A stretch of 56,591 nucleotides of DNA, from NCBI GenBank assembly GCA_023246225.1, contig JAHFIV010000003.1:1-56591 (forward strand), written 5' to 3'. Numbering within the stretch: position 1 is the first letter of the stretch; the number at the start of each line of letters is the position of its first letter. The notes under the pieces were generated by a model, which worked only from the letters and a program-made list of their open reading frames with translations, ran no database searches and was not told the DNA's origin. Made by a program: the position numbers and the translations under genes. The DNA is from a bacterium. GTDB taxonomy: Bacteria > Patescibacteriota > Patescibacteriia > SG8-24. Of the stretch, positions 2,913 through 14,796 are shown one piece after another.

Positions 2913-2942
2913 CAATGATGGTTAACATGTCAACTATCATTG
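2913..2942. promoter_or_regulatory. Near-perfect 30-bp palindrome (probable MarR operator) overlapping the -35 TTGACA of the marR promoter
   Basis: CAATGATGGTTAACATGTCAACTATCATTG, 26/30 self-complementary; minus strand reads TTGACA-N18-TAAGGT. Confidence 0.65.
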
Positions 2943-4019
2943 CAGATGAGCGGCGTTCTTCTCGCAGCCACGATGAATGATTTTCTCTCTCATCGTATGA
3001 GAAAGTGCCGAGGCTCGGCAATGACAAGTGAGACCGAGATACGATGGGAGATTCTTTTCGTCCACCTTTCGTAACATGCGTCGTTTTGTTGTTGTTCGAA
3101 GAATACGAAAATTCGGAAAACAGATGTACCCAAGAAAATCAACGCCCCGGTGGTACCGTTTTAAGATGATCTTTTTCGGATGGAGAGAAAGACGGAGGCG
3201 GGTTTCAAGAAATTCCCCTATAACAGGGAGCAGCTTCTCTAAGAACGCGCGATCGTGGTGGAGCAAAACAAAATCATCGCAATACCGCACATACTGTCGC
3301 ATAACGATATAATGCTTCACGAACTGATCGAGTTCATTCAAATACACATTCGCAAAAAGCTGCGAGGTGAGGTTGCCGAGAGGAAACCCTCCATCAGAAA
3401 AACTTCTTACGACATCAGCGATAAGTTCCAGCGTTTTCTGGTCGTGGATGGTCCGACCGATTATTGAGAGCAAAATTTCCTGATCGACCGAGGCAAAAAA
3501 TTTCGCGATATCGAGCTTAAGTACCCAAACCGTTTTCGTATTATTTCTCGAAAGTTTCCACGCCATCCTCGAAAAACGATCGACCGCACGATGAGTCCCC
3601 TTTCTCTTACGACATGACCATGAATCAAAAATGAATTGCCGCTCAAAGAAAGGCTCGATGACGCGGACGATAGCATGGTGAAGTAAACGATCCGCCACTG
3701 AGGCCTTATGTATCTGGCGACGTTTTGGATCGTGCACAACAAAAGCTTCGTAACTCCCATGCTGATACGTGCCGCCACGAAGTTGGTCATAAAGCTTGAA
3801 GATGTTATCTTCAAGTTTCAATGCAAACTCCTGCATGTCACGTCGTCTCATTTTTCCTCGCTGGAACTCATTCCATGCCGCAAACAAATTCTCTAATGAA
3901 ATAATCCGTTCAAAAATTGTTTTATGAATACTCTGACCCCCCCCGATGCAACTTTGTCCCTTCCGATTTTCCATACTTTCTATGGCTTTCTCCGCCGGCT
4001 TGCGGTAGTACTGGACCAT
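2937..4019 (-). CDS. DGR reverse transcriptase
   Basis: DPKRRQI, DRLLHHA, KGTHRA, LKLDIAKFF, GFPLGNLTSQLFANVYL (DGR-type SQ motif), YVRYCDD, GVDFLGY; true start may be ATG 3974. Confidence 0.95.
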   Translation of the reverse strand: MVQYYRKPAEKAIESMENRKGQSCIGGGQSIHKTIFERIISLENLFAAWNEFQRGKMRRRDMQEFALKLEDNIFKLYDQLRGGTYQHGSYEAFVVHDPKRRQIHKASVADRLLHHAIVRVIEPFFERQFIFDSWSCRKRKGTHRAVDRFSRMAWKLSRNNTKTVWVLKLDIAKFFASVDQEILLSIIGRTIHDQKTLELIADVVRSFSDGGFPLGNLTSQLFANVYLNELDQFVKHYIVMRQYVRYCDDFVLLHHDRAFLEKLLPVIGEFLETRLRLSLHPKKIILKRYHRGVDFLGYICFPNFRILRTTTKRRMLRKVDEKNLPSYLGLTCHCRASALSHTMREKIIHRGCEKNAAHLQ

Positions 4020-4313
4020 GTTCCCAAAAAATCACGCTACACTCTCGGCGCAAAGATTGATACCACGTCACTCGACGTTTTCTAACTCATCCTCAGAGCC
4101 AACCAGGCACGTGGTGAACAACGTCTCGCATTGCTCCACGAAACAAGCGTCGCGCTCGATCTTCTCAAAATCCTCATCCGCCTCGCAAAAGACACGAAAT
4201 CGCTCTCAGAAACACACTACATCTTGCTCCAAGAACCGCTCCAGAAAACCGGAAAAATGCTCGGCGGATGGATAAAAAATCCAGAGGCTTCACGAACAAA
4301 GAATCCCGCGTGA
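3924..4313 (+). pseudogene. avd: DGR accessory variability determinant (Avd/bAvd-like four-helix bundle) with in-frame TAA at 4083-4085
   Basis: Manual translation from ATG 3924: MNTLTPPDATLSLPIFHTFYGFLRRLAVVLDHVPKKSRYTLGAKIDTTSLDVF*LILRAN...LDLLKILIRLAKD...GKMLGGWIK; PKxxRYTLG and GKMLGGW are Avd-like motifs. Confidence 0.85.
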
Positions 4314-4327
4314 ATGCGGGTTCTTTG
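4297..4327. other. Stem-loop just 3' of TR in the minus-strand RNA, overlapping the avd stop codon
   Basis: CAAAGAA-T-CCCGC-GTGAAT-GCGGG-TTCTTTG. Confidence 0.6.
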
Positions 4328-4333
4328 CGAGAG

Positions 4334-4444
4334 ACGATCGAGAGGACGGAAACCGATGTTCTCGTTCCGGTTGTCGGCGTCGTTCCAGTTGACGTTCGAG
4401 AGACCACCGTTGTCCGAGTTCCCACCGTAGAGACGGTTCCGGCT
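4334..4444 (-). repeat. DGR template repeat (TR), 111 bp
   Basis: Reads SRNRLYGGNSDNGGLSNVNWNDADNRNENIGFRPLDR; 9 AAC codons and 26 adenines, none in codon position 3; ungapped match to VR1 and VR2. Confidence 0.96.
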
Positions 4445-4681
4445 CCCTTGCGCGTCATGCCATCTGCGGCAGCACGATTTCATCACCGTTTCCGGCGTAG
4501 TCATCGTTGTATAAGTATGTGGCGACGTATCTTTTGTGCGCGTCGTCTCACACGACGCGCCCGCGCAAGCATCACGCACATCGTTTCTCTTAAAAATGGC
4601 GAACCGGATGTCCGTAGACCCAGTTTCATTAGCCAAAAAAATTCTATCGCCCAAAGGTCCAAAGGTCAAAGGCCAAAGAAC

Positions 4682-7498
4682 CTATTTTTTTGAAGAGAAA
4701 CGACCGAGAGGACGGAAACCGATGCGCTCGTAACGGTCGCCGGCGTCGCGCCAGTCGACGCCCGAGAGACCACCGAAGACCGAGTACCCACCGCAGAGAC
4801 GGCTCCGGCTGTCATATACGTCTTCAAACCACTCATACGTATCGGTGTTTCCCCATTCGGGATACAACGCATTGCCAAGATAATTGTTGTCAATCGCTCG
4901 CGGCAAATGAAACGCCTCGACTGGAATGCCGATCGCATGAGCAAGAGCACTTCGAAGCGCCGGTTGCTCCAAATCTTGAGGACTCAAATTAAAACGCGAA
5001 CCAGGAATTTTGTAATTCTGAACGAACTGTCTATTTCGAAAATCTGCAAGTACAGGTTCAAAAATATCATCAGTATATCGTTGATCGCCATTTTGATACT
5101 GTGGCTTACGGCGTGTATCTACAAGAAGCCATGCGCCAGAAAGTTTGGCAGCGTCAGGTGGAAGTTTCCCCGTCTTTATCGCGTCAAAAAACTCAATCCC
5201 GTATTGCTCTCCAGGAGTAAATTTTTTACCGGGTTTATTTTTCCAACCAGGAAAATTGCTGTCTTCCTTCATTTCTACCGCGGGCACAAAATGCAACTCA
5301 AACCCTTTTTCTTTCCATTCTTTATACTTTTCTGGAGTGGCCTCTGGAGGGAGTGGTGGCACTTCGATCTCTGCGCCAAAAAACTTTTTAATCGTTTCGC
5401 GCTCGCGGTTTATGAGTTCGCGGAATTCTCCTCGGGATTCATGGCCTTCGATACGACGCCGTGCTTCAGGCGGTAGTTTCCCCATGTCAAGCCCATCGAG
5501 AATCGCTTGAGGATCCACGGCCTCCCATGCAAGAAATTGCTCCACGGAAACCAAACGAGTTTTCTCCTTGCGTGCATCCTCCGAATGCACGACGAACTCC
5601 CCTGCGTCAGTGCGTCCAAGCACACGCCAACGCTTCGCCTGTGCACCAGAACCCTCGATACGACTCGCGTCGACCGGCGCTTCCGCGGTCCCCTCGATTG
5701 TATACTTCACGCTTTTCCCTTTAATCACCGCATTACCGTCGGTGATTTTCGGGGTGATCAATTCCTCATAGCGAACACGCGGAGAAAAAAGTCCGATTTC
5801 GCGAGGAGTAAGGACATGGAACTCTGCTTCGGGCTTTTTCTCTCGCGCATCTACCTTTTTGCCAAGCAAGTTAAAATGACCAAAAAAATCTCGCACAAGT
5901 TCGGCATCCGCTTGTGTAATGTCAGCTTCTGCAAGTTTTGCCTCTATTTTTTCTACGAGAAGCTCTTCGAGCGAACCGGTGTATCCTTCCTCAGCAGCAC
6001 GATGAAGCCAGCCGAGGACGACGCCTGGATCCAGCACAAACTTTGCAAGAAATTGCGCCTCTCCCCTATCCTTCAGCACGGTTTCTTGACGAGAAAGACT
6101 CTTGTAGAGCTCCGACAATCCACTCGCGAATCGCCAAACCGCGCCGCCTTTTTTCGGATCCTCATCGAGTTCCCGAATTTTCTTTTTGCCCTCGACACGA
6201 TATTTCCACGCAGGTGAAAGTTCGTCGGTTGCAAAACGAAGACGACGATTCTTGTCCATGAGCGCAGCGAGCATCGCTTCGTAAAGTTCAGGGTTGTTTT
6301 CGCTCTGTTCGGGATAAGGAACGGTCACCGCAGCACCAAATTCTCTTCTCACCGCTACATCGATCGGTTCACGGTCATATCGATCAGAGGATGGGTTACC
6401 GGCCGCCACAAAAAGATAGTTGGGCTGCACATACTGCTCGCCGATGAGCGGAAGGCTCACTTTGTGCCCTGGACGAACACCGGAAACCGTTTTAATGATT
6501 TCCATCTGCACTGCACGCTCGCGTTCATTGAACTCGTCATCAAAATATAAGCCGCCTTGATGACGCGGCTTAACGTCTGCACTCGTTTCTTTGCCGGTCA
6601 GCGCCTGTGCGAGCGCTTTAAAATCAAGTTGAGTCACCATCCCCTCGCCCACACCCTGCTTCACGAGAGAATCTTGCAACCGCGTCGATGGACCACCTTG
6701 CGCCCTGAACGGTTCCATGCCCGTGAGAGACTTCGCGGTCGCCCGCACAAGTGTCGACTTACCTGTCCCCGACTCGCCAAGGAGAAGTACCGGGCGACCG
6801 GTAAGTGCGACGGTTTCGATCTGCTCGAGTATGTCACGACGGCTCGGAAGCCACATGAATCCCTGTGACTCAAATTCAGCGCTGTACCCGGACACGCGCT
6901 CATAGGAAGCCTGGGCAGCGAGGAGAGGAAATTCTGCAAGCATCTCCGTCATATCCCTACGCGCCTTGGGTAACTCGCGAGTAATCTTTTGATACGCAAA
7001 CTTATCCATCTCGCTCACCCGACCGCCCCGCTGTTCGAAGAGTCGACGGCTCGCTGCGTCAAAATCCTCCTCGAGACCACGAACATGCTCACGCAGCGCG
7101 CGAAATTTCTCATAGCTCCCGTTCATCAATTTTTTCTCCTCAGCGTGTCGATCGATTTCAGCAAGGTACGTCGCCTTGGTCTCCGGATCGTTGTACAGCG
7201 AGAGGAAAAACCCTAGTTTCTGATTATCTTTTTCTTCATTTTCGGCGAGGTTCTCTTTGCTCCCCGCATGCGCAACATCGGATTTCACTTCTTGAAACAT
7301 GCTCCACAACATTTCTGCGCGGTGTGCTGGCGAAAGAAAGTCTGCGGGAGTGGCGGCTGATTCTTTCCCCGGAACGATATGACGCTGTTCCAAAAAGAAA
7401 CCGATCGGATCAGCAGCAAGCTCATCTCTGTGCTCGACCATGTGGCCAAGTCCTTTTTCGGATTGTTCACTAGACGATCTCTGTTCAGACATACTCAT
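4682..7498 (-). CDS. DGR target 1: MoxR/AAA_5-type AAA+ ATPase fused to a C-terminal variable (probable CLec-fold) domain
   Basis: Walker A GESGTGKS, Walker B YFDDEFN, sensor-1 AAGNP, DVAVRREF; ends in VR1 (GFRP motif); start trimmed to MSMSEQ. Confidence 0.9.
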   Translation of the reverse strand: MSMSEQRSSSEQSEKGLGHMVEHRDELAADPIGFFLEQRHIVPGKESAATPADFLSPAHRAEMLWSMFQEVKSDVAHAGSKENLAENEEKDNQKLGFFLSLYNDPETKATYLAEIDRHAEEKKLMNGSYEKFRALREHVRGLEEDFDAASRRLFEQRGGRVSEMDKFAYQKITRELPKARRDMTEMLAEFPLLAAQASYERVSGYSAEFESQGFMWLPSRRDILEQIETVALTGRPVLLLGESGTGKSTLVRATAKSLTGMEPFRAQGGPSTRLQDSLVKQGVGEGMVTQLDFKALAQALTGKETSADVKPRHQGGLYFDDEFNERERAVQMEIIKTVSGVRPGHKVSLPLIGEQYVQPNYLFVAAGNPSSDRYDREPIDVAVRREFGAAVTVPYPEQSENNPELYEAMLAALMDKNRRLRFATDELSPAWKYRVEGKKKIRELDEDPKKGGAVWRFASGLSELYKSLSRQETVLKDRGEAQFLAKFVLDPGVVLGWLHRAAEEGYTGSLEELLVEKIEAKLAEADITQADAELVRDFFGHFNLLGKKVDAREKKPEAEFHVLTPREIGLFSPRVRYEELITPKITDGNAVIKGKSVKYTIEGTAEAPVDASRIEGSGAQAKRWRVLGRTDAGEFVVHSEDARKEKTRLVSVEQFLAWEAVDPQAILDGLDMGKLPPEARRRIEGHESRGEFRELINRERETIKKFFGAEIEVPPLPPEATPEKYKEWKEKGFELHFVPAVEMKEDSNFPGWKNKPGKKFTPGEQYGIEFFDAIKTGKLPPDAAKLSGAWLLVDTRRKPQYQNGDQRYTDDIFEPVLADFRNRQFVQNYKIPGSRFNLSPQDLEQPALRSALAHAIGIPVEAFHLPRAIDNNYLGNALYPEWGNTDTYEWFEDVYDSRSRLCGGYSVFGGLSGVDWRDAGDRYERIGFRPLGRFSSKK
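4700..4810 (-). repeat. DGR variable repeat VR1
   Basis: 18 mismatches to TR over 111 nt, 17 at TR adenines. Confidence 0.96.
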
Positions 7499-7554
7499 GC
7501 TTGAAGTACGAAATTTGATCGGACCAAAGGTCAAAAGACCGAAGGCCAAAGAAC

Positions 7555-8538
7555 CTATTTTTTTGAAGAGAAACGACCGAGAGGACGGAAACCGACGTCC
7601 TCGTGCCGGCCGGCGGCGCCGACCCAGTAGACGTACGAGAGACCACCGCCGTCCGAGTTCCCACCGTAGAGACGGTCCCGGCTATCGGCTGTTTTGTCTT
7701 TGAGCCATTCAAGAGTGGTGGTGTTTCCCCATTCAGGCATATGCATGTGCATGAGGAGACTGTTTTCAATTGCGTAGGGAAGGTCGAGGTCTTTGACGTT
7801 CACGCCTAAGGACGCAGCAAGCGCGGTCTGTACCTCTGGCTTTTCAAAATCAGAGCCGCGGATGCCGAAACGGGACTTGGGGTTGGGAACAGCATCGTAG
7901 GGCTCAATGACGGGGTTTGCTCCTCTGCGGAGCGTCTCAAGCGCTTTGCCGATCACCTCATCGTTTGGATATATTTGTGCGCCATTGTCATAGTTCGGTT
8001 TTTGCCTGGTATCGACAAGCATCCATCCCCCAGGGAGTTCGCTGTGGATTTCTTCAGGACCTTTTTCTGGTTTCTTCGTCCATCCAGGGAGCTCTTTCCA
8101 CTTTTTTTTGCCATCTGGGCCGGTTTCACTGAGAACAACGGGGGGAAGATAGTGGAGTTCAAACCCTTTTTCTTTCCATTCCTTGTACTTTTCTGGAGTG
8201 ATCTCTTGTGGGAGTGGCGGAATTTCGATCTCTTTGCCGAAAAGGGTTTTGAGTGCTTCTTGCTCGCGATTGATGAGTTCACGGAATTCAGGACCGGTCT
8301 CCGCAGCCTCCTTCACTTCGATCATCCCCTTCATTTCATCGACCAGGTTCTTAAAACGAAGCTCCTCGGCGGGGGTCGAGGCGCGACTTATGATTTTATC
8401 GCGAAGTGTGGCGATTTCTTCGGCACGCTTCGTGAGTGCAACGGTTTCATCAGCCGACCAGTCGAGTGGAACTGAGGGCTCCGTCGACGGCACCATTCTC
8501 GCTGGCTCCCGCGTCGGTTGTCCTTCGGGATGTGGCAT
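7555..8538 (-). CDS. DGR target 2: stand-alone variable domain protein, paralogous to the C-terminus of target 1
   Basis: Shares EFRELINRE...PPLPxExTPEKYKEWKEKGFELH, DTRxKPxYxNGxQxY, PEWGNT and GFRPLGRFSSKK with target 1; ends in VR2. Confidence 0.9.
   Translation of the reverse strand: MPHPEGQPTREPARMVPSTEPSVPLDWSADETVALTKRAEEIATLRDKIISRASTPAEELRFKNLVDEMKGMIEVKEAAETGPEFRELINREQEALKTLFGKEIEIPPLPQEITPEKYKEWKEKGFELHYLPPVVLSETGPDGKKKWKELPGWTKKPEKGPEEIHSELPGGWMLVDTRQKPNYDNGAQIYPNDEVIGKALETLRRGANPVIEPYDAVPNPKSRFGIRGSDFEKPEVQTALAASLGVNVKDLDLPYAIENSLLMHMHMPEWGNTTTLEWLKDKTADSRDRLYGGNSDGGGLSYVYWVGAAGRHEDVGFRPLGRFSSKK
7573..7683 (-). repeat. DGR variable repeat VR2
   Basis: 15 mismatches to TR over 111 nt, all at TR adenines. 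Confidence 0.96.
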
Positions 8539-8539
8539 A

Positions 8540-11122
8540 TTATTTTTTCTTCGGTTTTCCTTTCACGCGCGCAGGGTAGAGCGCCTGAAAAACCGCGATG
8601 GTATCCGCAGCGACCGCAGGTGCGAGTGTACCGAGTGTTTCGATAACAGAAGCGTTGGGAGCATAGATCGCTTTGATCGGCTTCGCCGCGGCGGTCATAC
8701 CATAACCGTACACAACGGTACCAGCTTCACGAAGCTCTCGCAAAGCGGTTTTCGTTGCCGAAGGATTATTCGAACCACCGTCGAGGAACGCCGCAACGAA
8801 CGCGATCGGTGGCTGTTCGCCTGGTTTATGCTGCGTTTTATCCCAAACCCCACGCTCGCTCAAAATCTTTGTCTTGATCTCCGCGAGCGCCGCATGATCT
8901 GGCGTGCCGCCACCCGCGGTGCGCATAAGGGCTTGGTACAGCGCGAACTGTTCTTTTGGTCCCCATGTTCCCGCAAGCGGAAGGTCGGTCGAGACGTCGC
9001 CGTGGATACTGGTAAGCTGAATACGAATAGGGAGCGGAGCGGTGAGACGACCCTGCGACTGCCGAGAAAGAAACGCGCACTGCATGAGCGAATCCACATA
9101 GACCATCACGGCGTCACGTTGGAGATCGGCTTTGACACGGCCGGACTCGGGGTCGATTTCAGACATGGAACCAGAGAGGTCGGCCATCAGATAGACATCG
9201 ATGCCACCGAAAAGTTTTTGTCTTTTTTCGCGCGTACGGATGCGCTCAAAGCCAGACACATCACGCTCGCCAGCCTTGTGGTCGATCATTGCGAGCGCGG
9301 GATCGGTAAGTTCGTCGCCTTCGCTCATTCTGACCGGTCCTTGGTACTCACGCTTTTCTCCTTTACGACTCTGGACAAGCTGACGCCACGCCGCGATCAG
9401 TTTTTGCTGAATGCGCTCTCCTTTTTCGTCTTTCATTTCGCGCACGCGCTGAAACATCTCGCGAACTTCTTTCGCTTGCTGTTCCGAGCAACCGGCTTCG
9501 CGCGCGAACGTTTCGGTGACGCGTGCTTCGCTTGTCTTATTTTCTTCGCGCGCATTGTCTTCGGATCGCTCAAGAGATTCGATCAATTCTTCAAGATCCT
9601 CATCGCTCATGATCTCCGCTTCTTGTTCGCCATAGTCCCCCTCACCGGCAGGTTCTTGTTCTTCGTCCGGCCGTTCTTCGTCGAGCGTTGGGTCGTCCTT
9701 CGGTGTCGCGTCAGGATGGAACCATTGTCCAGTATCAGCATCATACACTTCGAGCCAGGCGTGACCGGTACCGCTCGTCATCATCGCCTTCTCAGCCGAC
9801 GCAGCCTTTTTGACATAATGACCGGTCGCGAGACGGCACGGAATGCCCGCTTTCCGAAGTACCGCCGCACCGACAGTGTTCGCCACATCGCAATCGGCTT
9901 TCTTCTCTTGCCAAATGCGTTCGAAGTATGCCGCAGGGTCCGCACGATAGACTGCGTTCATGCTGCTGTCGTTCGAGTAGTCCAAATGCTCACGCACGAC
10001 TTTGAGAAGAAATCTTGCGCGGCCGGCGGCAGAAAGTTTTGTCGCCGCAAGCTCGGTAATTTTTTGTTCGAGCTCAGTAGGGAGACGCGCAGCGATTTTT
10101 TTATCAATTTCCGTTGGCGGCATTTGCGGTGGTGTGCCTTCCTCGCGTTTTCCTATATTGAGACTATAACTAAAAACTCCATCGGCATCGATTTGGAGAT
10201 GAACGTTACCGTTGCCGTCTTCGGTGAGATGGATAGCGTCCGGTGGTGCCGAGGTTTGGAGGGTTCGCGTGTTCACGCTCCAGCCATACGGAACTGGGAT
10301 CGCAATCTTCTGCCGACCACGCACTCTTCCTGTAAGGAGTCGAGAAGAAAGTGTCTCGATTTCCTGCTCGACGAGCGGTTTCTCAACAGTCGGCGCCTTT
10401 TTCCATTTCAGCTCTGCCTCGTCCCATTCGCTGTACAAATTTTGTCGAAAATAACCACCATGAAAAGGAGTGACGGTAAAGTAGGCCTTTGATTCGCCTT
10501 TTTCTTTTTCTTTGGAGAGCTCATCCATCGACGGCGCAAACTCGTCGGTTTCTGGAGGAGGGAGGGAGTCGTCCTGCGGTGCAGGAACGGATTCTTGTTG
10601 TTCTGCATCCGTTTGTTCGGGTTGTTCTGTAGATTCTTTTTGCGCTTCTTCTTCGGGTTCGGGTGGGGATACATCCTGATCGGCGAGCCATTCAACCATT
10701 GAAGAAAGGTGATTTTTCCAAATGTCCACCTTCGTTGCAAATGGCACGTCGTGGGAGGTGAGCAGCTCAAGCGCATTCGCCGGCCCTTCGCTTGTAGCGA
10801 TTGTTTTGAGTCCCTCGAGAAAATCATGCGCCACTGGATCGGCATCGACAGCGGGCACAGCGTTCGGAGTTTCAAGAGCAGCGGCAACTGCGCGAAGAAA
10901 CGCATCAACTCGCGGCAAACCGGTCTCTTTCATTTTTGGCGGCTTGCCGAGCATCGCCGACTCCACAAGTTCACGAAACGGTTTTGGCACCTCCTTTTTC
11001 CATGTCCGATACGCCATCGCCTGTTCGCGGGTATGTATCGCAAAAGCCGGCCTCTCTTGCTCAGAAGTTTCGCGATGCTCCAGCGAAGGCTCGGGCGGTG
11101 ATGTTGGTGAACGATTCGGCAT
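8540..11122 (-). CDS. Transglutaminase-like domain plus C-terminal vWA domain protein
   Basis: Cys-His-Asp triad motifs ADCDVAN, GHAWLEVY, WFHPDATP; MIDAS motifs DLSGSM, GGGTPD, FLDGG; start trimmed to MPNRSP because the longer ORF overlaps dusB. Confidence 0.85.
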   Translation of the reverse strand: MPNRSPTSPPEPSLEHRETSEQERPAFAIHTREQAMAYRTWKKEVPKPFRELVESAMLGKPPKMKETGLPRVDAFLRAVAAALETPNAVPAVDADPVAHDFLEGLKTIATSEGPANALELLTSHDVPFATKVDIWKNHLSSMVEWLADQDVSPPEPEEEAQKESTEQPEQTDAEQQESVPAPQDDSLPPPETDEFAPSMDELSKEKEKGESKAYFTVTPFHGGYFRQNLYSEWDEAELKWKKAPTVEKPLVEQEIETLSSRLLTGRVRGRQKIAIPVPYGWSVNTRTLQTSAPPDAIHLTEDGNGNVHLQIDADGVFSYSLNIGKREEGTPPQMPPTEIDKKIAARLPTELEQKITELAATKLSAAGRARFLLKVVREHLDYSNDSSMNAVYRADPAAYFERIWQEKKADCDVANTVGAAVLRKAGIPCRLATGHYVKKAASAEKAMMTSGTGHAWLEVYDADTGQWFHPDATPKDDPTLDEERPDEEQEPAGEGDYGEQEAEIMSDEDLEELIESLERSEDNAREENKTSEARVTETFAREAGCSEQQAKEVREMFQRVREMKDEKGERIQQKLIAAWRQLVQSRKGEKREYQGPVRMSEGDELTDPALAMIDHKAGERDVSGFERIRTREKRQKLFGGIDVYLMADLSGSMSEIDPESGRVKADLQRDAVMVYVDSLMQCAFLSRQSQGRLTAPLPIRIQLTSIHGDVSTDLPLAGTWGPKEQFALYQALMRTAGGGTPDHAALAEIKTKILSERGVWDKTQHKPGEQPPIAFVAAFLDGGSNNPSATKTALRELREAGTVVYGYGMTAAAKPIKAIYAPNASVIETLGTLAPAVAADTIAVFQALYPARVKGKPKKK

Positions 11123-11248: not shown

Positions 11249-12205
11249 ATGTTCCGCTGGTCCGACCTCGAAAACCCGATCGTTGCGCTTTCGCCGATGG
11301 CCGATATGACGGACTCGGCGTTTTGTCGTCTCACGAAGCACATCGGTGCGCCTGTCGTATTTCGCGAAATGATCAGCGCAGAGGGACTCATACACGGAAG
11401 TGAAAAATCGTTTCGCATGGGCGCGTTTCATGCAGAAGAGCGCCCGCTGATCCAGCAATTATTCGGCGCAGATCCGAAAAGTATGGCGGACGCCGTAAAG
11501 ATGATCGATGATGCGTATCATCCTGACGGCTTCGATGTGAACATGGGGTGCCCGGTGTACAAAATCACGTCGAACTTTAACGGGGCTGCGCTGATGAAAG
11601 ACGCCGCGCTCGCGACAAAAATTATCCGTGCGATGAAATCTGCGACACCGTCCCCTGTGTCGGTGAAACTTCGCCTTGGATGGTCGCGACCCGACGAAGT
11701 GCTTGAGTTTATTAAAGTCGTAGAGAGCGCCGGTGCAGACCTCGTGACAATCCATGGAAGAACAAAAGAGCAAGGATATTCCGGCGTCGCAGATTGGGAG
11801 ATGATCGGTCGTGCAAAAGCGCGCGCGTCGATCCCCGTGCTCGCGAACGGCGACATTCACACTCCCGAGGCCGCAGTGAAAGCGCTCGCCGTTTCTGGTT
11901 GCGACGGCGTACTGATCGCACGCGGCGCGCTCGGCAATCCGTGGATCTTCACACAAATGCACGCAGCGCTCCGTGGTGCACCGTGGACCGTACCGACGCT
12001 TGCGGAACGGATCGCGGTCGTGCGCGAACATGCGCGTCTGCACGTGACGCAATACGAGGAGCATCACGATCTCACCACATTCCGCAAACACCTCACGTGG
12101 TATTTCAAAGGAATCCCCGGCGCAAAAGCGCACCGTGATCGATTAGTAAAAGTCACGACGCTCGAAGAGCTCGACGTCATTCTTGATGAGCTCAGAAGTT
12201 CCTAA
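11249..12205 (+). CDS. dusB: tRNA-dihydrouridine synthase
   Basis: LSPMAD, QLFG, DVNMGCP, VSVKLRLG, TIHGRT, ANGDI, ARGALGNPW. Confidence 0.92.
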   Translation: MFRWSDLENPIVALSPMADMTDSAFCRLTKHIGAPVVFREMISAEGLIHGSEKSFRMGAFHAEERPLIQQLFGADPKSMADAVKMIDDAYHPDGFDVNMGCPVYKITSNFNGAALMKDAALATKIIRAMKSATPSPVSVKLRLGWSRPDEVLEFIKVVESAGADLVTIHGRTKEQGYSGVADWEMIGRAKARASIPVLANGDIHTPEAAVKALAVSGCDGVLIARGALGNPWIFTQMHAALRGAPWTVPTLAERIAVVREHARLHVTQYEEHHDLTTFRKHLTWYFKGIPGAKAHRDRLVKVTTLEELDVILDELRSS

Positions 12206-13599: not shown

Positions 13600-14796
13600 A
13601 TGGCTGCAAAACGGTCCATGCAATCGCAAGGAAAACCATTACCGAAATGGAACTTTTTTGCGCATCCCCATTCACTCAACCAACAAATAGCGATCGGTGC
13701 AGGTATTTTGACAGTGGTCACCGTGGTGGGGTATCTCGCCCATGGACAAAACATTACCACACCGCAATCGACGTTCGCTTCTTCGTACAGCAAGGCCGCG
13801 AGTCGCGATAAAGAACGGTATGCGCAGCTCGCAACACTGAGCGAAGCGCTCGATGCATATAAAAAAGAAACAAAAGAATATCCTGCATCACTCACCGCGC
13901 TCGCACCAACATACCTGCACGAAATTCCGAAAGATCCTTCCACGGGACAACAGTTCGGCTATCAAGGTGATGCGACAAAATTCACGGTGAAATTCGGGCT
14001 TGAGCAAGGAACCACCACTCTGCCCGCCGGCGAACACACACTTTCTGAAAAAGGATTCGACTCGCCAGCACCAACCTCAAAAGAAATTTCAAAAACTGAA
14101 AATGCAGCGACCACCGTCACAATCCCCACAGTTCCGACAAGTCCTGTGACCACAACACATTCTGTATCAGACGCCGAAGCCCCACCACAACAAAAAAAAT
14201 CCCCAACACCGCTCGTGGTTGATTCTGATAATGATGGCCTGTCAGATGCACTAGAGATACAAATCGGCACAGATCCGCACTCACCAAATATTCTTTCGAG
14301 CACACAGCTCGCCTACCAAAATACTTCACCACCGAGTGCTGCACCGTCTGACGCATCACCTGCTGGACCATCGTCTACTACAACTACCGCCACCGCTTCT
14401 GCACCTTTAAAATCACTGCAAAAATCTTTAGGCTTTCTCGATACGCTCTCTAAAATTGTCGAGGAAAATTTTCAGCCGCTTCCTCAAAAAAACGACGCTG
14501 TGCTGAACCCTGAAATACCCACGAAAGAAAAAACGACAACAGCTCCTCCACATAAAATCTCCGCAGAACTTGCAACCGCAGCAACAACGATCAACATCAA
14601 CACCCCGGAGATGAATCAGATGAAAACGGAGGTTGTGCAAACCACACAGTCACCGGAACTCGGGCAAGCGGTAAAAAATTTCTGGTCGCTACTCCAAGAA
14701 AAAATTGGGCAATTTTCAAAAACAATAATTCTCCAATTTGTCACGCTTCTTCGAACGGTGTGGAATATATTGGTGGCGCTCGTCACTGCAAAATAA
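13600..14796 (+). CDS. Membrane-anchored protein with pseudopilin GspG-like segment, Ca-binding-like DxDxDG motif and Pro/Thr-rich linkers
   Basis: N-terminal TM; ALDAYKKETKEYPASLTALAPTYLHEIPKDP; DSDNDGLSDALEIQIGTDP. Confidence 0.65.
   Translation: MAAKRSMQSQGKPLPKWNFFAHPHSLNQQIAIGAGILTVVTVVGYLAHGQNITTPQSTFASSYSKAASRDKERYAQLATLSEALDAYKKETKEYPASLTALAPTYLHEIPKDPSTGQQFGYQGDATKFTVKFGLEQGTTTLPAGEHTLSEKGFDSPAPTSKEISKTENAATTVTIPTVPTSPVTTTHSVSDAEAPPQQKKSPTPLVVDSDNDGLSDALEIQIGTDPHSPNILSSTQLAYQNTSPPSAAPSDASPAGPSSTTTTATASAPLKSLQKSLGFLDTLSKIVEENFQPLPQKNDAVLNPEIPTKEKTTTAPPHKISAELATAATTININTPEMNQMKTEVVQTTQSPELGQAVKNFWSLLQEKIGQFSKTIILQFVTLLRTVWNILVALVTAK

Follow-up and report, generated by a model that had tools for sequence, protein, structure and literature searches.

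Diversity-generating retroelements (DGRs) are abundant in CPR/Patescibacteria according to published surveys, and the locus described here raises the question of what a diversified ATPase of such an element works with and to what end. The window, a 56,591-nt stretch of contig JAHFIV010000003.1, comes from a groundwater CPR bacterium with a genome of 1.12 Mb. It contains a cassette whose minus-strand order is the gene for a protein combining transglutaminase-like (TGL) and vWA domains, the gene for a stand-alone variable protein (VP2), a MoxR-type AAA+ ATPase gene, a template repeat (TR), an inverted Avd-like gene, and a reverse transcriptase (RT) gene.

Organization and Genomic Setting of the Locus

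A preliminary description of this DNA had reported three tightly packed minus-strand genes separated by gaps of 1 and 56 nt and encoding proteins with no evident transmembrane (TM) helix, and these statements were borne out by ORF reading and a hydropathy scan. A single base (8539) lies between the TAA of the TGL-vWA gene (8540..11122, minus strand) and the ATG of the gene for VP2 (7555..8538, minus strand; 327 aa), and 56 nt separate VP2 from the ATG at 7498 of the ATPase gene (4682..7498, minus strand; 938 aa). The TGL-vWA protein has 860 aa when read from the ATG at 11122; the alternative TTG start of its ORF (extending to 11458) would run into the divergent Dus gene (11249-12205). VP2 would have 313 aa if read from Met15, where its 313-aa database twin begins, and the 936-aa database twin of the ATPase starts two codons further downstream. 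The maxima of 19-residue Kyte-Doolittle means for the three proteins are 1.03, 0.88, and 1.45, none of which reaches TM level in this crude test, and judging from their sequences all three look cytoplasmic.

The neighbors of the cassette are housekeeping genes (Dus, MarR, HlyD-like, and ABC ATPase), and there is no defence island. Against both the PADLOC 2.0 models and NCBIfam, the ATPase drew nothing beyond P-loop-level matches, and VP2 and the TGL-vWA protein drew no match; PADLOC contains no model for any of the three. A promoter scan returned 5 sites against 5.3 expected and hence carries no evidential weight.

Two Paralogous Domains Rewritten by a Retroelement

The TR (4285..4447, minus strand, with VR homology stopping near 4334), VR1 (4695..4810, minus strand, in the ATPase gene), and VR2 (7568..7683, minus strand, in the VP2 gene) are the sole copies in the 1.12-Mb genome. 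Over a core of ~110 nt, VR1 differs from the TR at 18 sites, 17 of which are TR adenines, and VR2 differs at 15, all 15 of them at TR adenines, so that the DGR diversification first proposed for both genes is upheld; adenine-biased TR/VR mismatches were also found in 13 of 17 related loci. The TR contains nine AAC codons and 16 variable codons. Two paralogous domains have thus had ~16 codons of their C-terminal tip altered by the RT/TR pair. A stem-loop lies directly 3′ of the TR (4290..4345, minus strand; dG -12.5 kcal/mol, z -4.1, with 0 of 200 shuffles equally stable), and the regions 3′ of the VRs hold no hairpin or cruciform beyond that seen in shuffles (z -0.7 and +0.6).

The RT gene (2937..4019, minus strand), of the DGR/group-II-like type, matches RVT_1 (9e-21) and a PADLOC RT model (8e-51); since its ORF runs into the Avd-like gene, translation probably begins downstream of 4019. 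RT orthologs stand beside the ATPase gene in 15 of 18 loci, and the RTs adjoining the ATPase in related loci are 36-60% identical. The Avd-like accessory gene lies on the opposite, plus strand (3924..4313); its C-terminal piece matches bAvd (PF22296, 2.7e-7), and frame reading places an in-frame TAA at 4083-4085, which suggests that the element in the window may no longer be active. An intact reverse-strand counterpart is present in 14 related loci. The VR population was checked in four DNA runs of one study, and in their assembled contigs, which break at TR/VR repeats and lose rare variants, VR1 was without differences in runs X1, X2, and X4 and VR2 in X1 and X3. One 248-nt contig of run X2 joins VR-flank-like sequence and carries 8-9 differences per ~60 nt; it probably derives from a relative.

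The ATPase and VP2 had been described as bearing the same variable domain, and the two are indeed paralogs, the C-terminal domain of the ATPase (4685..5431, minus strand; residues ~690-938; repeat family D2) being 52% identical to VP2. There are 64 stand-alone homologs of VP2, all unnamed, and one of this type (P0201) has a TAT-signal Pfam match. VP2 has no Pfam family, 16 variable-domain members gave nothing relevant in Pfam, and a variable-domain profile search against the PDB returned chance-level matches only. The matches listed by Foldseek (pdb, viral) and VIA wide searches with the whole 938-aa model were all taken up by the AAA+ domain. Among the eight rows listed by a structural search of the ESM Atlas, the five with a Pfam family all belong to PF03781 (TM 0.40-0.49, below the tool’s bar), a weak to moderate hint that the variable domain may have a CLec/FGE-sulfatase-like fold.

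The MoxR-Type Motor and the TGL-vWA Protein

The AAA+ module of the ATPase (5864..6847, minus strand; residues ~218-545) carries Walker A GESGTGKS, Walker B DDEFN, sensor-1 Asn368, and Arg385. It matches Pfam AAA_5 at 28.4 bits (cut-off 22), and Midasin is the best PDB sequence match of the protein, while the closest solved relatives of its predicted structure by Foldseek are of the CbbQ, NorQ-NorD, and Rea1/Mdn1 type. The MoxR-type AAA+ identity originally assigned is thus supported by fold search together with the Walker motifs, sensor 1, and the Arg finger, and by its predicted fold the presumed AAA-CLec-type target of the window is a MoxR-type motor.

In the TGL-vWA protein (AF2 model, pLDDT 74), a helical N-domain is followed by a beta-sandwich, a transglutaminase-like core, an acidic linker, a helical stalk, and a vWA domain with MIDAS. 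The papain-fold core (9713..10078, minus strand; residues ~349-470; Cys411/His454/Asp471) matches Pfam Transglut_core (1e-13), and its best fold match by Foldseek is TgpA (6g4h, 4e-10). The vWA domain (8573..9232, minus strand; residues ~631-850; MIDAS D648-x-S650-x-S652 plus D781) is assigned on motifs, PDB profile search, and fold, with Foldseek matches to the NorD vWA (9qhd_G, 1.4e-8) and the Rea1 MIDAS domain (6qtb, TMt 0.72); Pfam VWA gave no match in this protein at E 0.01. Both domain calls of the preliminary description accordingly stand, a TgpA-like core and by fold a MIDAS-bearing vWA, as does its claim of an intact C-H-D triad and MIDAS, since all 11 of the orthologs aligned keep C411, H454, D471, D648, S650, S652, and D781 unchanged. 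When the ATPase (residues 1-560) and the TGL-vWA protein (residues 500-860) were modelled together as a monomer pair, the score was 0.00, an uncontrolled value that speaks neither for nor against contact; a monomer pair may be the wrong setup for a ring.

Conservation of the Gene Pair

Co-occurrence of the two genes in other genomes was one point on which the initial proposal had been staked, and it is found. The ATPase-centred search places a TGL-vWA gene in 15 of 18 related loci, the other three ending on that side, and in the TGL-vWA-centred search all 15 metagenome loci whose flanks are long carry both the ATPase and the RT, counts that overstate independence because the loci are kin and some metagenome loci are duplicate-like (L058/L076, L091/L097, L114/L115). 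The linkage is kept through several gene orders at 27-35% identity; ATPase and TGL-vWA gene are co-inherited in divergent lineages. In ORF clustering of 19 loci, the only families present in more than seven were the ATPase/variable protein, TGL-vWA, RT, and Avd, and all other clusters were shadow ORFs on the strand opposite to them. In the neighborhood of G308, a full-length TGL-vWA homolog at 28% identity, there is no ATPase or RT gene, and a repeat-protein gene comes after it instead, which counts against the reading proposed below.

Several candidates were set aside. Four loci (L019-L022, E 4e-7 to 6e-5) match the ATPase core only, with no TGL-vWA or RT gene nearby, and were taken for unrelated AAA+ proteins, and five partial TGL-vWA profile matches (G095, G117, G014, G086, and G088; E 4e-13 to 4.5e-28) cover one domain only and were taken for generic vWA or TGase proteins. 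The Gammaproteobacteria and Methylomirabilis record labels of some loci are distrusted, as L015 equals G274:C20, assigned to the window’s own phylum, in length and match coordinates.

Proposed Mechanism and Alternative Readings

We lean, if only slightly, toward regarding the cassette as a CPR-type DGR that diversifies the sensors of a soluble MoxR-vWA-transglutaminase machine, which would be an anticipatory intracellular recognition-and-destruction system. By analogy with NorQ-NorD, CbbQ-CbbO, and Rea1, and with the MoxR-vWA-YebA operon, the ATPase would form a hexameric ring showing six variable ligand-binding domains; the vWA of the partner might dock on this ring, or its MIDAS ion grip an acidic residue of the bound ligand, and ATP-driven remodelling could then bring the captured ligand before the Cys-His-Asp site, where it would be cleaved or transamidated. 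Since the three proteins look cytoplasmic, the likeliest ligands would be invading proteins such as phage proteins. The defence role is one that we purely infer, and its main alternative is the handling of host-derived or self proteins. Possible but rather doubtful is the more far-reaching proposal that CPR AAA-CLec proteins are the receptor-motor of an anticipatory, antibody-like intracellular immunity, in which six diversified domains would capture the invader and a MIDAS-docked TGL-vWA protein would destroy or cross-link it. The preliminary description, which had hypervariable domains selecting phage or host proteins for processing by the ATPase ring and papain-like domain, is as a whole partly supported.

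The same machine could have no part in defence and act, as a chaperone or protease of adaptable range, on host-derived or self proteins or on symbiosis-linked imported material; MoxR-vWA pairs are typically maturation or remodelling chaperones, and the DGR would only widen the client range. CbbQ and NorQ-NorD, the closest solved relatives, are enzyme-maturation chaperones, as their PDB entry titles indicate, the 1.12-Mb genome is typical of dependent CPR bacteria, and the housekeeping flanks and empty PADLOC result are in keeping with such a role. We nevertheless think it unlikely, as a client that stays fixed would hardly call for a hypervarying binding site, the module has a patchy distribution (the ATPase part is matched in 7 of the 401 genomes sampled from the phylum), as expected of an accessory conflict or interaction system, and the published DGR-MoxR-vWA systems have been interpreted as conflict systems (Kaur et al., 2020, PMC7159879; Dore et al., 2024, PMC10907252).

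The remaining readings question the partnership or the location. Synteny might reflect no physical contact, the TGL-vWA gene being a passenger of the DGR cassette or serving the retroelement and not the ATPase, and it is true that in the TGL-vWA-centred set (n = 80) the RT is linked as tightly as the ATPase (45 versus 42 loci) and that in 15 of the 16 RT-only loci (all but L083) the RT lies directly upstream of the TGL-vWA gene. This is made improbable by two loci (L014 and L018) that keep the ATPase and TGL-vWA genes with the RT decayed or missing, which also indicates that diversification is not obligatory, and by the persistence of the linkage through changing gene order; to our knowledge, moreover, well-studied DGRs require no TGL-vWA-like protein. 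MoxR-type ATPases are characteristically paired with vWA proteins (PMC3495828; PMC7159879; PDB NorQ-NorD). More improbable still is a site of action outside the cell or at host-cell contact, reached through an export route invisible in sequence, with the variable domains mediating attachment, as has frequently been suggested for the targets of CPR DGRs. In its favor are the episymbiotic life of CPR bacteria, the classical function of DGR targets in surface binding, and the TAT-signal match of the stand-alone homolog P0201. Phage Mtd is a surface-binding target of this kind (PMC7159879). Against such an extracellular role, the crude hydropathy test shows no signal- or TM-like segment in any of the three proteins, the ATPase requires cytoplasmic ATP, and all solved MoxR-type ring relatives are cytoplasmic.

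Significance

The CPR AAA-CLec target gains a first concrete candidate partner, a TGL-vWA protein with intact catalytic residues that is nearly always co-encoded. Two published lines supply a mechanistic frame, one on degradation by MoxR-vWA-TGL systems and one on MoxR-vWA sensors diversified by DGRs, and the question of function can now be tested with three soluble-looking proteins suited to heterologous expression. DGR-coupled NTPase conflict systems, hitherto tied to multicellular bacteria, would extend to minimal-genome episymbionts, in an architecture set apart from the published ones by its fusion of sensor and motor. If the immune reading is true, some of the smallest genomes known would encode adaptive recognition joined directly to an effector driven by ATP.

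Comparison With Known Systems

The statement in the preliminary description that AAA-containing DGR targets had been noted in CPR is matched by print (Wu et al., 2018, PMC5758913; PMC10907252). The former source describes ‘UVR4’/Midasin-like targets, and the latter, citing Paul 2017, names the AAA-CLec fusion as the commonest DGR-target architecture in CPR. These targets resemble that of the window in having an N-terminal AAA domain (midasin/AAA_5-like) with a C-terminal variable region and in the position of Avd between TR and RT, but the published passages cited here give domain make-up only, with no linked TGL-vWA gene, MoxR assignment, or mechanism. No description of a TGL-vWA partner for them was found in print; Paul 2017 and supplements, outside the scope of the search, may hold one.

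A second relative is the operon of MoxR, vWA, and a YebA/TgpA-like transglutaminase (Zhang and Aravind, 2012, PMC3495828), for which it was proposed that vWA recruits, MoxR unwinds, and the TGL enzyme cleaves, a logic that can be transferred to the window. The likeness lies in the linkage of a MoxR AAA+ protein, a vWA domain, and a TGL enzyme with an intact triad. There, however, the TGL enzyme is an 8-TM membrane protein, the genes are three separate ones (sometimes with MoxR and vWA fused), and the cited text presents no DGR, whereas in the window TGL and vWA are fused in a soluble-looking protein, whose maximal 19-residue hydropathy of 1.45 points to no TM-like segment, and the MoxR protein bears the hypervariable domain.

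DGR-associated MoxR-vWA (VMAP) ternary conflict systems have been described from cyanobacteria, gammaproteobacteria, and other multicellular bacteria (PMC7159879; PMC10907252). They share with the window a DGR that diversifies a domain (C-type-lectin/FGS-type there, and possibly so here) within a MoxR-vWA-peptidase system, which has been read as sensor, transducer, and effector. In the published systems the vWA component or a distinct target protein carries the variable domain, and a third protein, VMAP, bears the peptidase, in most cases trypsin or caspase and seldom TGL. In the window, in contrast, the variable domain is on the ATPase and the peptidase-like domain on the vWA protein; the VRs lie in the ATPase and the free protein only, with none in the vWA protein, and ORF clustering alone, over the 19 loci, gave no further conserved protein as a third component. 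The hosts differ likewise, a small-genome CPR bacterium as against multicellular bacteria.

NorQ-NorD, CbbQ-CbbO, and Rea1/Mdn1, solved MoxR-type rings with vWA/MIDAS partners, are the best structural matches of both proteins, but are dedicated chaperones with fixed clients and have neither a variable domain nor a TGL domain. Separate publications have thus already covered AAA-CLec targets of CPR, operons of MoxR, vWA, and transglutaminase, and conflict systems in which MoxR-vWA is linked to a DGR, and what appears to be new, within the literature searched, is the combination at this locus of a variable domain on the motor with a peptidase fused to vWA.

Gene Organization and the Diversity-Generating Retroelement

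The module occupies the 3–11 kb stretch of the window, on the minus strand. Upstream of the reverse transcriptase (RT) ORF (2937–4019), the template repeat (TR; 4285–4447) and the gene for the 938-aa MoxR-type ATPase (4682–7498) lie the genes for the 327-aa stand-alone variable protein VP2 (7555–8538) and the 860-aa transglutaminase-like/vWA protein TGL-vWA (8540–11122). The spacing given in the preliminary description, 1 base between the TGL-vWA and VP2 genes and 56 bases ahead of the ATPase ATG, was confirmed. Three in-register copies of the repeat are present, with no others in the genome (1.12 Mb, 72 contigs). Over a core of ~110 nt, the variable repeat ending the ATPase gene (VR1) carries 18 differences from TR, 17 of them at TR adenines, and that ending the VP2 gene (VR2) carries 15, all (15/15) at TR adenines. 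The element is a diversity-generating retroelement (DGR) with two targets, and its TR, with 9 AAC codons and 16 variable codons, would allow ~6e14 protein variants. The variable domain is indeed common to both targets, as previously proposed, with 52% identity between VP2 and the C-terminal ~250 residues of the ATPase. Adenine-targeted mutagenesis has altered the tip of each of these paralogous domains.

An Avd-like gene missed in the preliminary description (3924–4313, plus strand) lies opposite the RT and target genes and overlaps the 5′ end of the RT ORF. It contains an in-frame TAA at 4083–4085; in 14 related loci, an Avd-like ORF in the same reverse orientation is uninterrupted. The window's gene spans a break in the public contigs (4027–4070). 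Directly 3′ of TR is a stable stem-loop (4290–4345, minus strand; dG −12.5, z −4.1), and no comparable structure was found 3′ of VR1 or VR2. The ATPase and VP2 genes share ~45 nt of conserved sequence beyond their VR stop codons. A promoter-like TTGACC-17-TAGAAT is located between the ATPase stop codon and TR (4641–4669, minus strand) and a terminator-like hairpin at 4602–4625; overall, the promoter scan returned sites no more frequently than in shuffled sequence. Outside the VR, a 157-nt stretch of the VP2 gene (8017–8173) exists as two alleles with 12 differences, which coexist in contigs from three public DNA runs (X1, X2, and X4), while those from a fourth run of the same study (X3) show the variant form only; this could represent a strain variant or a paralog. 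A 398-aa protein (13600–14796, plus strand) gave a weak match to a pilin-like family (T2SSG) at its N terminus, contains a bacterial TSP3 repeat, and showed no conservation in the related loci.

The Three Proteins

The ATPase has the MoxR fold with intact motifs. Its TGL-vWA partner matches the Pfam transglutaminase core, in keeping with its earlier identification, and both the catalytic triad (Cys411, His454, Asp471) and the MIDAS residues (D648, S650, S652, D781) are intact and invariant in 11 orthologs. When a structure model of TGL-vWA (pLDDT 74) was compared with known folds, the TgpA periplasmic domain ranked first (4e-10), followed by vWA domains, including NorD in NorQ-NorD complexes (1.4e-8); TMt was 0.72 against the Rea1 MIDAS domain and 0.79 against the anthrax toxin receptor vWA. 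Residues ~480–505, which link the TGL core to the stalk, are disordered and strongly acidic and include a conserved EGDFGEQEAE motif; this linker may serve as an internal MIDAS ligand or as a pore substrate.

The variable domain gave no match in Pfam and PDB sequence searches, and none of its 64 stand-alone relatives is named. In a structural search of the ESM Atlas, the three nearest clusters were without a family, and the five of the eight matches listed that have one were all FGE-sulfatase, at TM 0.40–0.49, under the tool's bar. In agreement with the earlier claim, a crude test detected no hydrophobic stretch resembling a TM segment or a signal in any of the three proteins.

Co-inheritance of the ATPase and TGL-vWA

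Co-occurrence had been named beforehand as a test capable of refuting the module, and was assessed both from the ATPase and from TGL-vWA. The ATPase-centered set comprised 22 loci, of which 18 were counted; L019–L022 were rejected as relatives, being marginal AAA matches without either partner. A TGL-vWA ortholog was found in 15 of the 18, as expected from the preliminary description, and in the other three the ATPase lies at or close to the contig start. RT was present in 15 and a reverse-strand Avd-like ORF in 14. ORF clustering found no further gene family common to more than 7 of 19 loci, opposite-strand shadows apart. Among 401 sampled genomes of the window's phylum, seven matched the ATPase part, all with a TGL-vWA(-like) match on the same contig within ~4 kb; the variable domain alone was matched in ~15 more. 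From the TGL-vWA side, 80 of 116 loci were kept, with ATPase in 42, RT in 45, and either in 58. Both were present in all 15 loci having at least 6 kb upstream and at least 4 kb downstream, and the 22 loci lacking both are each limited to ≤1,338 bases on one side. Gene order varies among lineages, with TG ahead of AAA in 30 loci and the order AAA-RT-TG in 12. Across 55 pairs, the identities of one protein rise and fall with those of the other (r 0.96, Mantel 0/2000), showing co-inheritance, although kin are not independent. In 13 of the 17 related loci checked, the ATPase gene or the variable-protein gene has a 3′ end that differs from a template of its own specifically at adenines. The metagenome loci include at least three apparent duplicate pairs. 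The taxonomic labels carried by several of the related loci are doubtful, since L015, labeled Gammaproteobacteria, shares hit coordinates with a locus of the window's own phylum (L035, G274:C20).

Some loci run counter to a strict rule. Genome G308 encodes a full-length TGL-vWA homolog (L029, G308:C1, 229–3766; 892 aa; Pfam Transglut_core and a weak VWA match) with no ATPase or RT nearby, and a 284-aa protein with five ~40-residue repeats downstream. L014 and L018 still have both the ATPase gene and that for TGL-vWA, with RT reduced to a 91-residue remnant in the former and absent within 10 kb in the latter; no TR was found in either. The variable domain also differs in its arrangement. In the window's two closest relatives, the ATPase (P0002 and P0003, from L001 and L002) carries two tandem variable domains; in the window, by contrast, one is fused and one free. 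ATPase and variable protein are separate ORFs in L010–L013 and L016–L018, and several loci have one to three additional free variable proteins. Since just 11 of the 80 loci in the TGL-vWA-centered set have a variable domain of the window's type, whereas the ATPase and TGL-vWA are constant, the constant core consists of motor and TGL-vWA, and the variable domain is an exchangeable, putative sensor.

Proposed Mechanism

Beyond mutagenesis, motifs and folds, and tight co-inheritance, the mechanism is drawn from solved and predicted relatives. By analogy, the module most likely works as follows: the ATPase would assemble into a ring, onto which the vWA domain would dock, unless it instead holds an acidic residue of the ligand; a captured protein would be remodeled by ATP hydrolysis and then cleaved or transamidated at the TGL site. 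As the three proteins appear to be cytoplasmic, their ligands would probably be intracellular. Our favored guess is phage proteins, the main rival being that the clients are host-derived or self proteins.

Comparison with Known Systems

The three constituent elements are, in the portions of the literature consulted, already in print: CPR DGR targets matching the Midasin AAA domain (PMC5758913), a strict MoxR-vWA-TGL gene triad (PMC3495828), and DGRs diversifying FGS/CLec domains within MoxR-vWA ternary systems (PMC7159879; PMC10907252). A full-text literature search did not find the specific arrangement. As the elements are in print and an earlier mention in Paul 2017 or in supplementary files is possible, the module is not regarded as a categorically new system. 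Relative to the systems as described in the cited portions, the sensor here is on the motor, a single soluble protein combines TGL and vWA, a third component resembling VMAP is lacking, and the host is a CPR bacterium. The widespread MoxR-vWA-YebA operon has the same proposed logic (PMC3495828), to which a DGR-made sensor is added here, as has likewise been proposed for MoxR-vWA conflict systems (PMC7159879; PMC10907252).
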